A DNA stretch of 64,000 bases from an uncultured Gammaproteobacteria bacterium (GCA_963760725.1 CAVXET010000039.1:63497-127496), one strand, 5' to 3'. Positions 2,502 through 11,651 are shown, counted from the stretch's first letter. The notes: generated from the sequence alone by a model not told the origin. A program made the numbers and translations.

Positions 2502-4825
2502 TTACGCCTCGCAAGGCGGCGCCGGTAAAGGCTCCACCTCCTTGGCAAGCATCACAGCCTCGAGCACGTCTAGGCGACCGTAACCATAGAAGTCGCTGAT
2601 CCACGTCAAGCCCTTCTGTAGCGAACCGCACGTCGGGGCTCGGATGGTGGAATAGCGCCTCTGCCGGTGCGCCAACGACCCGTCTGCGCGTTGCCCGAGC
2701 AATCAACTACATCGGACGTGTTATCGCAATCAATCTTCACGGCCGAAGCACAAAGCACGCGACATACTTGATCCCAATTCAGGTTGGGATTGACTGTGAG
2801 CACCAGCGCCGCAGCGCCTGAAACCATCGCCGCGGCAGCGGACGTTCCGCCATGCATCGCGAGGCCCTTCCCTGCATTCGCGTCGTCGCTGCAGAGTGGC
2901 GCCTGCCCCAACCCAATTCGCGGGCTCAGCGATGGCGCTCCTTGGCCATTTGCGCACAGGTCGAGAAATGGACCATAGTTCGAACCTCGCGGGTGTGGCC
3001 GCCCATCCATCTCGGCGACCCATCGCGACTCGCTGTTGCCTTGAGTGTTCGTGTTGCCGACGCCGATCGTGAACGGAAACGTCGCGAGAGTCTGGTCGTC
3101 CTCGATGTCGCAATTGTCGTTGCCAGCCGAATACACCACTATGGTTCCTCGACCGCCGCGGCCAAGACAGGCTAGCTTCTTCAGGGCGTACTTGACACGC
3201 GCTTGCACCACCATCCCGCCCAAACCGTGCGAGCAATTGATGATGTCCGCCGGCTTGTCAATCGGCGACGCACCTGAAGCCCGCCTCGGAGGTGTCTCAC
3301 GAATGCCGCCGACCCATGCGTAGAGTGTCCGCATAGTTCCGTGTGTCCTGAATGAAAATGCCGGTGAACTCGAGCGCGAGATGATTCACGTGCGGAGCTA
3401 CACCAGCAATGCCGAACTCGTTGTCGGGTTTCGCTGAAATGAGGCCATATGTGGCCATTCCGTGCCACTTGCTCGCATCCAGCGCGGGAACTCCACTGCA
3501 GCCTGTATTTGACTCCACGCTGTAGCAATAGCGCAGCCGCTCGACATCGACATCGGGATGATCACTGCTGCCGGTCACGGAGTCGAACGTAATTCCGCTG
3601 TCGATCGATGCAACGCGGATTTCAGCCGATCCGTACCGCTTTGCCGGATCGATAGCCTCGAGGAAACACCATGCTTGCCTGACTCGCTGCCTCTCGAGAC
3701 TGCCCTGACAAGCGCTAAATGGATCACTTGTCGAGTTCGACTGGCAAAGAAACATCCTGATCAAACCTGCGATGGACCCGGCGCCGTGTGATGGTCCATG
3801 GTTCTGGATCTGGAAGAGGAGATTCGGCTCACCAGATAACAGGGTGCCTACCCGGTATTCACGATTGACGACGTTTAGATGACGCCCGATATTCTGTGGA
3901 TCCTCGAAATCGATCAGCCAGAAGTCACCGAGCGGCTCTGATTCCGGAATCATGTTTGCTTGCAGCGTCTTGGCATAGCGTTGGGCCTCCTCGCCGCTGA
4001 CGGTTCTCGGCAATTGCACGATATACTGGCTGTCGATGATTCGAACAATTCCGGCCTCTGTCTGCGTCGGAGCACCAACCCTTCCTCCATAGCCCGCAAA
4101 CACAGTCCTTAACTGGACTACTGCATCCGGCGTCACAAGAGTGTGGGCCTGGCCGGGATCCGGCTCGAACGAAAAGAACGAGACGGACGGATTGGCGGGC
4201 ACGAAGACAGCACCGAGCCATTCACACTGTCCATCTGCGCCCCGGTGTCGGGATCGCGCGTTACCGGCCGAAAGCCCGCGCCGGAAGCCCGGGCGTACAG
4301 ATCGGTTATCTCCTGGTCGCTCAACCGGCGCTCCATTGCGACGCCCGCTAGCCGGGCCCGAGGCTCAAAAGGAATCTCGATCCCGTCCAGCAGGTATGCC
4401 GGCCAACCGACCGGTACGAGGTACGTTCTAGCCACCGAAAGCGAGCCCTTCACTTCTATCGTCCGCTTGACGTCTCGATGACCCCTGGCGCGCACCGCGA
4501 TGGTGTAGGTTCTTCCAGTTTGAACGATCCTTTCGTATACCAGGCCCGAGCGGACTCTCGGCACGTCGAGCCACTGACCATCGACCTCAATGGCGATGCT
4601 TATGTCGACCGGCACTGCCCGGTTCGGCGGCGACCTCACCGTAACCCGGAGCAGCCCCGTCGCTCGTGCTGCGTCGTCCGGCGAAACCAGAGAGATAGTG
4701 GGGTCCGCACTCGCGTTTGTCGGCGCAAGAGCCAGCGTCGAAGCCGACGCTGCAATCGCCTTGATCAGCTGACGCCGATCCATAACAAGGCAGCCCGTTG
4801 AGGTCAATCGCTTGAAACGCCGCAT
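2502..4825 (-). pseudogene. Tat-signal subtilisin-like serine protease (peptidase S8) with a long N-terminal extension; about 3 frame breaks
   Basis: Four minus-strand pieces join into one subtilase only if frame changes are allowed near 4205-4245, 3300-3335 and 2690. Piece 4133-4825 carries a twin-arginine signal (DRRQLIKAIAASASTLALAPTNASA). Piece 3297-4202 carries VASIDSGI (catalytic Asp) and WHGMATYGLISA (catalytic His). Piece 2606-3334 carries INCSHGLGG, VVYSAGND (oxyanion Asn) and HGGTSAAAAMVSGAAAL (catalytic Ser). Piece 2502-2702 carries FYGYGRLDVLEAV, a typical S8 C-terminus. Confidence 0.8.
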
Positions 4826-4869
4826 AAGGCGACTCCTCTTCTGTCAGTGCCGGCCAGGTACACAGACTA

Positions 4870-5372
4870 CTAGTAGCAGCAGCAGGTGGCAGTCGTGCAA
4901 TGGCAGCGCTTCGGGAACTTGCATGGATCGGTGGAGGTGAGGGGTGCACATGCGGCGATCGTGCGCTCCTTGACGAAGCCAAGGTATTCAACACTCTCCG
5001 GAGAACCTGGAACGTCGTCGGCACCCGGGCTGGAGTTTCCGACTCTTGGTCAAACGTGTAGTAGACCGCCATAACCGCAAAACGTGACATGGGAACATTC
5101 GTTCCTGAGATGAGCGGGACGCTCCGTTCGGTCAACATCGGGACCGGCATGACAGAGTCGTCAATGTCGACCAGCTTGCGCGTTTCGATTTCCCCATCCG
5201 GAACCTCTTCGACTTGTAGGAGCCGACTCTGCGCATCGTAGTAGAAAGCGCGATACTTGCTCTGCGGGTCAGCCTGCGCGGGTGACGATGCAAGTACCAC
5301 CGCTAGCATCAATGCAATGGCGCAAAAGCGTGCGGAAAGAAGGTTCGTCTCCCGGAAAATATCGTTTGTCAT
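4870..5372 (-). pseudogene. Small secreted hypothetical protein. The N-terminal part is in the frame of ORF 4587-5372, and the probable true C-terminus is a Cys-rich tail in another frame.
   Basis: The N-terminus MTNDIFRETNLLSARFCAIALMLAVVLASSPAQA looks like a Sec signal peptide. After about 5000-5040 the listed frame loses GC3 bias and overlaps the next gene by more than 200 nt. A second frame reads PGADDVPGSPESVEYLGFVKERTIAACAPLTSTDPCKFPKRCHCTTATCCCY, with a TAG stop at 4870-4872, 44 nt before the next start. Confidence 0.5.
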
Positions 5373-11192: not shown

Positions 11193-11575
11193 GACGCGCC
11201 GGGATCATGCCGGATCGCCCGGCTGGGTGCCATCTCGCTGATTGTGTCAGGCGGTTGACAGAATGGCCTGGAGATTTGGCCAACTATCCAAACCACATCG
11301 AGTGTGAGTGGCAACAACGACCAGCGGAGTACGAACATGACTAACGGAATGTCTTCGCGCACCCGACATATCGTCTCGAGCCTGGCGGCCCTTGGAACGA
11401 CGGCCCTGCTCCTGCCCGCGGTAGTCAACTCGTCCGACACGCGGCTGCAGGCGAGCCCCAGTGCCTCTGAGCCCGCCAGTGCGGTCGTTGCCTGGTCACG
11501 GCGTGGTGACCGGAAGGTCTGAATGCGCGAGCGGCGCCGCGAGTCGGCTGGACGCCATTTTTCTTGGCCGCTGAC

Positions 11576-11651
11576 TGGCGCCCCGGGCCGGAGTTGAACC
11601 GACGACCTATCGCTTAGGAGGCGATCGCTCTATCCACTGAGCTACCGGGGC
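11576..11651 (-). tRNA. tRNA-Arg (anticodon CCT)
   Basis: The reverse complement reads GCCCCGGTAGCTCAGTGGATAGAGCGATCGCCTCCTAAGCGATAGGTCGTCGGTTCAACTCCGGCCCGGGGCGCCA. It has a 7-bp acceptor stem, anticodon loop CT-CCT-AA, T-loop TTCAACT and an encoded CCA. Confidence 0.92.

Follow-up and report, generated by a model that had tools for sequence, protein, structure and literature searches.

What are the four minus-strand genes that lie between tRNA-Arg(CCT) and sucA in the genome of an uncultured Gammaproteobacteria bacterium: a signalling module of a kind already known, or acquired DNA on its way to decay? The genes fall within positions 2,502 to 11,651 of a 64-kb stretch of DNA (CAVXET010000039.1:63497-127496 of assembly GCA_963760725.1), which we refer to as the window and from whose first letter all coordinates are counted. 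They encode, in this order, a nucleotide cyclase of class III with a CHASE2 sensor domain, an outer-membrane protein built of a FecR domain, a TPR region and a barrel, a small secreted protein with a cysteine-rich tail, and a subtilase of the S8 family. We compared them with related loci (L-numbers) and with homologous proteins from the database (P-numbers). The core of this system is a distant member of an already known system type, that of NsrA and CyaK of Sinorhizobium meliloti, and we consider it probable (roughly 0.75) that the locus as a whole is a chromosomal, lineage-conserved NsrA/CyaK-type module with an exchanged cassette.

Homology to NsrA and CyaK

When a profile made from 81 sequences of the barrel-protein family was compared with NsrA using hhalign, the two aligned with a probability of 99.4% and an E value of 7.5e-22 over 974 columns (63-1120 of the family against 26-1180 of NsrA). 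BLAST is too weak to carry this relationship because NsrA is too distant: the BLASTP match to NsrA is collinear but weak, with an E value of 2e-8 on the FecR part only, and a tblastn search of the FecR-TPR fragment against plasmids returned no match. The S. meliloti locus, which resides on a megaplasmid, was reached via a weak CHASE2 match on the plasmid and then confirmed by profile comparison. There, a 1,197-residue FecR domain-containing protein, NsrA, ends where the annotated cyaK begins; its FecR domain (66-160) and TPR repeats (417-531) are followed by a C-terminal region that has no Pfam match. The cyclase of the window's family is 25% identical to CyaK (E 7e-26), in a match that takes in both the CHASE2 and the catalytic domain. 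By these comparisons, the cyclase and FecR-TPR-barrel pair is homologous to CyaK and NsrA over its full length. In both cases a protein with a FecR, TPR and C-terminal barrel architecture (1,197 residues in S. meliloti, about 1,120 here) is encoded beside a CHASE2 class III cyclase. The gene of another S. meliloti cyclase, cyaD1, is presumably adjoined by SMc02177.

An initial annotation of this DNA, made by a model from the sequence alone, had known of no characterised system of such composition. That view does not stand, as the NsrA-CyaK system has been characterised (PMC7529298, PMC13001267). NsrA is needed for signal perception by the CHASE2 cyclases CyaK, CyaD1 and CyaD2, and the plant signal that is perceived is proteinaceous (PMC7529298, PMC13001267). 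CyaD1 without its CHASE2 domain makes cyclic AMP (cAMP) constitutively, and SMc02177 has a FecR domain (PMC5498481).

We fetched 96 related loci and counted gene linkage in the 58 that have at least 2.7 kb of upstream DNA. A CHASE2 cyclase gene lies directly upstream of the barrel gene and on the same strand in 57 of these 58 loci, the exception having it on the other strand. CHASE2 cyclase and FecR-TPR genes thus co-localise recurrently, as the initial annotation's reading of them as parts of one module implied. Clustered at 50% identity, the FecR-TPR-barrel family (E<=1e-30) amounts to 2,734 clusters among the 1.84 billion representatives of the library searched.

The S. meliloti locus offers two further observations. 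On the plasmid CP140944.1, a 181-residue DUF5706 gene that is divergent from nsrA (L015:6624-7169, minus strand) matches PycTM, a family of Pycsar effectors (Pfam 9e-12, PADLOC 2e-15), and it may be no coincidence that a cyclic-nucleotide-responsive, PycTM-like membrane effector stands beside a cyclase module. In strain B399 (L014, NZ_CP019487.1), 1,113 bp are missing inside nsrA (L015:9499-10611), which leaves a protein of 761 residues with most of the barrel gone; judged by its sequence, B399 would be a natural nsrA mutant.

Architecture of the barrel protein

The barrel protein of the window (5415-8778, minus strand; about 1,120 residues) has Pfam matches to FecR (5e-12) and TPR_16 (3e-11), together with a weak match to TonB_dep_Rec_b-barrel at its C-terminus. 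A signal peptide is followed by the FecR domain (approximately 8158-8466), a TPR solenoid (approximately 6950-8000) and the barrel (approximately 5415-6830). In an AlphaFold2 model of the homologue P0003 (predicted local distance difference test score, pLDDT, 81.6), the same parts appear as a signal sequence, a FecR beta-sandwich (69-229), a TPR region (263-609) and a barrel of approximately 22 strands (650-1128). The best PDB matches to this model in a Foldseek search are BtuB, FpvA, FecA, ChuA and OprC, at E values of about 1e-13, with target-normalised template modelling scores of 0.5-0.6 for BtuB, FpvA, FecA and ChuA. Pfam detects no plug domain in either P0003 or NsrA, and the region of the model that is N-terminal of the barrel consists of the FecR and TPR parts. 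The model suggests a barrel of the TonB-dependent-transporter type in which the plug and signalling domain have been replaced by a TPR-FecR arm; in effect, the protein would unite a FecA-like barrel with the very domain to which FecA normally passes its signal.

Other identities were considered for this protein. As a true TonB-dependent transporter it would have both a 22-strand barrel and a plug, and only the former is present. A FecR-type anti-sigma factor was rejected, since the protein has only a periplasmic FecR domain after its signal sequence and the cluster holds no sigma factor gene. Likewise rejected was a Slam/type XI protein, which combines TPR with a 14-strand DUF560 barrel and a lipoprotein: the barrel here has approximately 22 strands and is transporter-like, and Pfam finds no DUF560 in it.

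Conservation along the cluster

Identities between the window and its closest relatives (L001, L011 and L012) change abruptly along the cluster. They amount to 90-94% for sucA (L001 and L012), 87-93% for the CHASE2 domain, 87-88% for the cyclase domain and 83-88% for the FecR domain, and then fall to 59-65% in the TPR region and to 30-36% in the barrel, a value no higher than that obtained against other phyla. The small protein and the protease of the window have no match in these three loci. A 40-residue scan of the barrel protein places the drop between residues ~500 and ~640, where the TPR region ends. Three other contigs (L099-L101; two beside sucA, one elsewhere) carry the same type of small protein as the window, which we call type D, and here the barrel is 51-64%, the small protein 45-74% and the S8 protease 45-74% identical to those of the window.

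To describe co-variation more broadly, we took pairs of loci whose cyclases are at least 60% identical. Mean barrel identity is 64% in the 17 pairs with homologous small proteins and 41% in the 93 pairs without (Mann-Whitney p 4e-8, a value that is descriptive only, the pairs not being independent), and FecR-domain identity hardly differs between the two groups (70% versus 65%). The reverse case is provided by L001 and L019/L020, where the cyclases are 60-62% and the barrels 74-76% identical. The mosaic of identities and this reverse case imply that recombination moves the barrel, the small protein and the protease as one block, uncoupled from the cyclase and the FecR part. On this sequence evidence, the three appear to form a cassette that is exchanged among close relatives, with a breakpoint in the TPR/linker region of the barrel gene. 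At least four types of cassette occur among close relatives at one chromosomal site. Polymorphic surface-receptor loci, for example the pyoverdine region of Pseudomonas aeruginosa, keep one site at which the alleles diverge and the composition is atypical, and the pattern seen at the present locus resembles them.

The small protein and the protease slot

The gene that follows the barrel gene (4870-5372, minus strand) encodes, by three-frame translation and comparison with intact homologues, a secreted protein of about 167 residues. It starts with a signal peptide and ends in the tail CAPLTSTDPCKFPKRCHCTTATCCCY, the Cys-rich C-terminus reading ...CKFPKRCHCTTATCCCY in the three-frame translation. 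Seven Cys are invariant across the intact homologues (L099-L101 and P0135-P0150). The family has 16 database hits, with C..PC.FPKRCHC....CCCY as its invariant tail, and proteins of this type D consist of two conserved blocks around a variable linker rich in Pro, Gly and Ser.

Comparable open reading frames (ORFs) recur beyond this family. In 69 loci an ORF of approximately 65-260 residues follows the barrel gene, and 55 of these ORFs end in the pattern C-x(3,16)-C-x(0,4), as compared with 6.8% of 3,357 small ORFs from the same loci and 2.9% of 414 long ORFs (Fisher p ~1e-48). This test of the terminal motif replaced an earlier control based on Cys counts, which was dropped as too weak because 43.5% of random ORFs in this DNA, which is rich in guanine and cytosine (GC), have at least two Cys in their last 45 residues. 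A signal peptide is present in most of the Cys-tail ORFs, and a lipobox in many. In other respects the proteins are diverse, with 72 of them falling into 12 clusters and 26 singletons. An alignment of 60 diverse members retains only one Pro and two Cys, the latter near the C-terminus, at a conservation of at least 90%, and none of the 60 has a match in Pfam; a search of NCBIfam gave no match either. The Cys...Cys tail probably forms a disulfide-closed hairpin. Small lipoproteins of a second type, B (L012, L013, L016 and L034), have His-rich tails, for example HPHSG...HCH x13 HC, that resemble metal-binding sites, and these raise the possibility that some cassettes sense metal.

The last gene of the cluster (2502-4825, minus strand) encodes a subtilase of about 770 residues, recognised by Pfam as Peptidase_S8 on two fragments. 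It starts with a twin-arginine motif (MDRRQLIKAIAASASTLALA), which intact homologues share; read by motif, the N-terminus runs DRRQLIK, AIAASASTLALA, NASA, and the RR motif is kept in L100 and L101. All three catalytic motifs are present in the fragments (Asp, IDSGI; His, HGMAT; Ser, GTSAAAA). The protein is 69-71% identical to the intact 773-residue homologues P0121 and P0122, the second of which matches Pfam S8 at 1e-25.

This position in the cluster is variable. Among 33 second downstream genes, 8 encode M12B reprolysin-like proteases, 7 S8 proteases, 3 LuxR-type regulators and 1 a protein with a domain that binds cyclic nucleotide monophosphates (cNMPs), the rest having no Pfam match or being flanking metabolic genes; lenient single-protein scans also found S8 domains in L036 and L029. 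The protease class follows the type of small protein: type A is accompanied by M12B in 9 of 9 cases, and types B and D by S8 in 4 of 4 cases each. Type C small genes are followed by genes for two unknown proteins. One of the two, encoded by the third gene of type-C cassettes, might be an M23 peptidase, its matches to that family being sub-threshold (E 0.016-0.15). In three loci of marine or sediment origin (L081:11182-11994, L083:8248-9063 and L098:10594-11478), a LuxR-type gene with Autoind_bind and GerE domains comes after the Cys-tail ORF. The swap of unrelated protease classes at one position argues that the module needs proteolysis itself. We do not count the protease as part of the core, because many loci have none.

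Literature searches on CHASE2 with related features yielded no description of the small protein or of the protease slot. Four features seem to be undescribed in the literature that we searched: the protein with the Cys tail, a protease slot whose occupant can be exchanged, a transporter-type barrel without a plug, and the polymorphism of the cassette.

The cyclase and its output

The cyclase gene (8915-11192, minus strand; about 758 residues) has Pfam matches to CHASE2 (5e-10) and Guanylate_cyc (3e-10), and over all 758 residues its product shares 79-87% identity with the intact protein of L001. The catalytic domain, at 8915-10186, keeps its metal-binding Asp, Asn and Arg residues. Across 57 related cyclases the two metal-binding Asp are invariant and the transition-state Asn and Arg nearly so. 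At the two positions that specify the substrate, these cyclases have Asp in 52 of 57 and Arg in 51 of 57. By the established assignment of these positions in class III cyclases, adenylate cyclases have Lys and Asp/Ser/Thr there, CyaK among them with Lys and Ser, and guanylate cyclases have Glu and Cys or similar.

Regulators with cNMP-binding domains lie near the module in 35 of the 96 related loci, and in at least 14 loci the gene of a LuxR-type regulator with such a domain is the immediate upstream neighbour of the cyclase gene and shares its strand. That these regulators lie nearby supports a cyclic-nucleotide output that is read by transcription factors. The initial annotation had expected an output of cAMP or cyclic GMP (cGMP) rather than a sigma factor. 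A cyclic nucleotide is indeed what the evidence favours; the choice between cAMP and cGMP cannot be narrowed, and the Asp/Arg pair makes another product possible. Together with the full-length homology to NsrA and CyaK and the linkage in 57 of 58 loci, the regulators in 35 of 96 loci support that annotation's central proposal, that the genes form a trans-envelope sensing module.

A model for signalling and its alternatives

In the NsrA/CyaK-type module that we propose, the plug-less 22-strand barrel would sit in the outer membrane, with the TPR solenoid and the FecR domain hanging into the periplasm, where the FecR end may touch CHASE2, the periplasmic domain of the class III cyclase in the inner membrane. 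An event at the barrel would then cause a conformational change that relieves the inhibition exerted by CHASE2, and the level of the cyclic nucleotide would rise. This nucleotide would be read by Crp-type or LuxR-type cNMP-binding regulators, which in many relatives are encoded next door, though not in the window. The small secreted or lipid-anchored protein, a third and nearly universal component, is a candidate for the cognate partner of the barrel, acting as a lid, a plug or a tethered ligand, because a plug-less 22-strand barrel needs closing and because the co-variation points to a direct partner. The secreted protease, which occupies the second downstream position in about half of the loci where a gene was called there, and whose class varies but is matched to the type of small protein, might cleave the small protein or the ligand of the barrel and thereby set or reset the signal. 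We offer these specific roles for the small protein and the protease tentatively, as considerably less certain than the module itself and at odds short of even.

Several points weigh against this reading or against parts of it. Identity to NsrA is only ~21%, the order of the genes is reversed (the cyclase comes first here, nsrA first in S. meliloti), and genes for a small Cys-tail protein and for a protease are both missing from the S. meliloti locus, so that the function may differ. With Asp and Arg in the window's family where CyaK has the canonical Lys and Ser, cAMP cannot be assumed to be the product. No cNMP-binding regulator was found in the 64-kb window by tblastn. An AlphaFold2 model of the small protein reached a moderate pLDDT of 69 and had no PDB match below E=1. 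Where a second downstream gene was called, only about half of the loci encode a recognisable protease there, which is hence not essential to the core mechanism. Finally, the contacts of FecR with CHASE2 and of the small protein with the barrel are ones that we infer.

The co-variation of barrel, small protein and protease as a unit would also fit a pherotype system, in which the protease cuts the Cys-knotted tail off a small-protein precursor and the released, diffusible peptide, as the ligand of the cognate barrel, reports the presence of kin with the same cassette. The Pro/Gly/Ser-rich linker of type D could be the cleavage site in such a precursor, whose tail has the 7 invariant Cys; proteases of unrelated classes occupy the one slot; genes with autoinducer-binding domains of the LuxR type follow the small ORF in L081, L083 and L098; and the signal perceived through NsrA in S. 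meliloti is proteinaceous (PMC7529298). However, many loci have a Cys-tail ORF and no recognisable protease, and the lipobox found in many small proteins suggests retention at the membrane over release. The conserved N-terminal block of the mature protein likewise argues for a folded protein over a mere leader, and peptide processing is itself a proposal made from sequence. We regard such a system, the main alternative to our model, as possible but unlikely. A fuller version, which must be called speculative, has a strain-specific lock-and-key set in which the protease would mature a self-made, disulfide-knotted peptide that only the cognate plug-less barrel can read, the FecR arm then passing the signal to the CHASE2 cyclase. 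If true, this would be a Gram-negative, peptide-based system of kin or quorum recognition with cyclic-nucleotide output, and would provide the first defined ligand route for CHASE2.

Less well supported is the idea that the barrel exists to pass the small protein and the protease out through the outer membrane, as Oar does for PopC, with the cyclase only regulating or monitoring export. The barrel does have the fold of a TonB-dependent transporter, its gene adjoins genes for secreted proteins whose type it follows, and the S8 protease, which would reach the periplasm by a putative signal of the Tat (twin-arginine translocation) type, would need a further step to leave the cell. Yet Oar-dependent secretion relies on the Ton system and on a plug that carries a TonB box (PMC6434023), whereas the barrel here is plug-less, and the homologue NsrA acts in signal perception rather than in secretion. 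Nor would export explain the near-obligate linkage to a CHASE2 cyclase (57/58), and a folded enzyme of ~80 kDa should, by our reasoning, fit poorly through a 22-strand pore. We judge an export machine to be improbable.

It is similarly doubtful, and to our minds quite improbable, that the locus is a sensor of envelope threats in which a fast-diversifying barrel, the target of phages or bacteriocins, reports attack via a cyclic nucleotide. Such a sensor would account for a barrel that is hypervariable and expected to be partly surface-exposed beside cytoplasmic and periplasmic parts that are conserved, and the non-canonical specificity residues of the cyclase and the PycTM-like gene divergent from nsrA in S. 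meliloti could be read in the same sense. Against this, PADLOC gives generic cyclase-domain similarity only, no effector gene is linked to the module in this lineage, and its neighbours (Crp-type and LuxR-type regulators and a putative phosphodiesterase) are typical of ordinary signalling, in a locus that is core and syntenic rather than part of a defence island. Identification as a Pycsar system was likewise rejected, as the similarity to PycC is generic (E 3e-11) and the window has no effector gene.

The reading as an NsrA/CyaK-type module with an exchanged cassette bears on two questions, namely which signal CHASE2 senses, asked ever since the domain was described, and how NsrA relays a signal to the cyclases. 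Because the small Cys-tail protein varies in step with the barrel, against a constant cyclase side, it is a concrete candidate for the partner or ligand of the barrel. The different cassette types at one site amount to a natural experiment on specificity, and the barrel itself would be a transporter-type barrel that lost its plug and was rebuilt as a signalling receptor.

Genomic site, base composition and frame disruptions

The layout given by the initial annotation, with four collinear minus-strand genes at short distances between tRNA-Arg(CCT) and sucA, proved accurate. The tRNA gene lies at 11576-11651 on the minus strand (ARAGORN; Rfam, 69 bits), the intergenic gaps are exactly 136, 42 and 44 nucleotides (nt), and a further 46 nt separate the S8 gene from the start of sucA at 2455. 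The AT-richness that had been judged by eye was confirmed by calculation. The GC content is 0.609 in the cluster versus 0.696 in the remaining window, and at third codon positions, where most of the drop is found, it is 0.63-0.78 in the genes of the cluster versus 0.83-0.99 in the flanking genes. By gene, the values are 0.567 for the small gene, 0.588 for the barrel gene, 0.598 for the S8 gene and 0.639 for the cyclase gene, so that the cassette is lowest.

A fifth conserved gene, overlooked in the initial annotation, lies between the start of the cyclase gene and the 3' end of tRNA-Arg. This 61-residue ORF, 'up63' (11337-11522, plus strand; MTNGMSSRTRHIVSSLAALGTTALLLPAVV...), is divergent from the cyclase gene, has a hydrophobic N-terminal segment and is 51-89% identical by tblastn to an ORF at the same position in nine relatives; a Pfam search returned no family match. 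At the other end, a terminator-like hairpin with a short GC stem and seven T (2501-2515, minus strand) coincides with the stop codon of the S8 gene, 46 nt ahead of sucA. It is suggestive as a possible end of the cluster transcript, and only its position counts: the promoter and terminator consensus scan of the region that found it gave site counts no higher than chance. An Rfam scan detected nothing beyond three tRNAs.

The order of genes from the tRNA to sucA is kept in at least ten relatives, with the cluster at the same site in L001-L005, L011-L013, L016, L099 and L100. In eight of these (L001-L005, L011, L012 and L016) the full order is tRNA-Ser(TGA), tRNA-Ala(CGC), tRNA-Arg(CCT), small divergent ORF, cyclase gene, FecR-TPR-barrel gene, small gene, protease or unknown gene, and sucA-sucB-lpd; their records include two Gammaproteobacteria, one Steroidobacteraceae and one delta proteobacterium. 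In all four relatives in which it was measured (L001 and L011-L013), the GC content of the cluster is 3-9 points below that of its flanks. The only spacing that varies in this part of the locus is that between tRNA-Arg and the divergent ORF, which ranges from 0 kb in the window to ~4 kb in relatives. In L002, L003, L004, L011 and L013 this stretch holds a Crp-type cNMP-binding regulator, and several of these loci add a Metallophos gene for a putative phosphodiesterase. The stretch adjoining the tRNA is the truly variable site beside it.

Pfam detects no integrase or transposase domain among the main ORF products of the window, in agreement with the initial annotation, and we found no direct repeat of the tRNA 3' end and no other attachment (att)-like repeat flanking the cluster. 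The suggestion that the cluster is DNA acquired at a tRNA 3' end is therefore not upheld: synteny extends to at least ten relatives, the low GC content recurs in the four that were measured, and neither integrase nor att repeat is present. For the same reasons, and because close relatives carry the cluster too, we rejected a tRNA-targeted genomic island; tRNA-Arg(CCT) is a conserved neighbour and not an integration site.

The reading frames of all four genes are interrupted, as had been pointed out before. With intact homologues as guides, we count 8 frameshifts in 8.7 kb: 3 in the cyclase gene, 1 in the barrel gene (near 6400), 1 in the small gene (near 5031) and 3 in the S8 gene (near 4206, 3320 and 2636). 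In a DNA alignment to a relative, those of the cyclase gene (near 10380, 10284 and 10157) are all indels of 1 nt, one of them in a run of T. The housekeeping gene sucA has 3 frameshifts in 2.4 kb, and the catalytic motifs of cyclase and protease are intact despite the disruptions. The database holds the window's own truncated gene calls as P0001 and P0149, and split genes are also found in several related contigs from ENA assemblies. The frameshifts are assembly or sequencing errors and the cluster is not decaying, because the changes are single-base indels that are about as frequent in sucA and that spare the catalytic motifs. Of the two explanations entertained by the initial annotation, poor sequencing thus holds and decay does not. 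The window looks like an unpolished assembly of error-prone long reads, and apparent pseudogenes elsewhere in it should be treated with caution.

Although the cluster abuts a tRNA 3' end at a distance that varies from 0 to ~4 kb among relatives, has a lower GC content than its flanks, third codon positions included, and is disrupted in every gene, it is very improbable that it is a horizontally acquired islet now decaying to pseudogenes, given the missing integrase and att repeat, the shared site in at least ten relatives with low GC content in the four measured, a cyclase and FecR part nearly as conserved as sucA, the single-base indels that disrupt sucA similarly, and the intact catalytic motifs. 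Low GC content, a tRNA neighbour and broken frames here mimicked a decaying island in what is actually a core polymorphic locus.

Comparison with known systems

Besides NsrA-CyaK, several known systems share parts of this arrangement. PopC of Myxococcus xanthus is a subtilisin-type protease. It is tied functionally to Oar, a barrel of the TonB-dependent-transporter type (PMC6434023). Unlike the barrel protein described here, Oar depends on ExbB/ExbD/TonB and contains a plug that bears a TonB box, and it has neither a FecR/TPR arm nor a cyclase.

Large barrels with a small lipoprotein partner are also represented by BtuB-BtuG and XusA-XusB, TonB-dependent transporters whose partner is a surface lipoprotein encoded beside the barrel gene, and by LptD-LptE and OmpA-RcsF. 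The BtuG and XusB complexes are among the Foldseek matches to the P0003 model. We detected no homology of the small proteins described here to partners of the BtuG, XusB, LptE or RcsF type, and these pairs differ in serving nutrient import or envelope assembly, with no feed to a cyclase.

FecR and CHASE2 domains have been linked before. The 'BiofilmReg' operon of Burkholderia genetically couples a periplasmic LysM-FecR protein to a CHASE2 histidine kinase (PMC5192318). There the kinase provides the output, and the FecR domain is accompanied by LysM rather than by a barrel. In Campylobacterota, the genes clustered with that of a CHASE2 adenylate cyclase encode an outer-membrane protein with a FecR domain, a phosphodiesterase and a TPR protein (PMC9239204), the last of which is reported to have a gene of its own. 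A Cys-tail protein or a protease is mentioned in neither publication.

The FecA-FecR-FecI and HasA-HasR-HasS systems resemble the present one in that an outer-membrane barrel of the transporter type, with 22 strands, sends its signal inward through a periplasmic FecR-family domain. In the Has system, moreover, signalling depends on a small secreted protein that binds to the receptor. The module described here differs from both in lacking a TonB box, an anti-sigma N-terminal domain and an extracytoplasmic function (ECF) sigma factor: its FecR domain is fused to the barrel, where it takes the place of plug and signalling domain, and its output is a cyclase.

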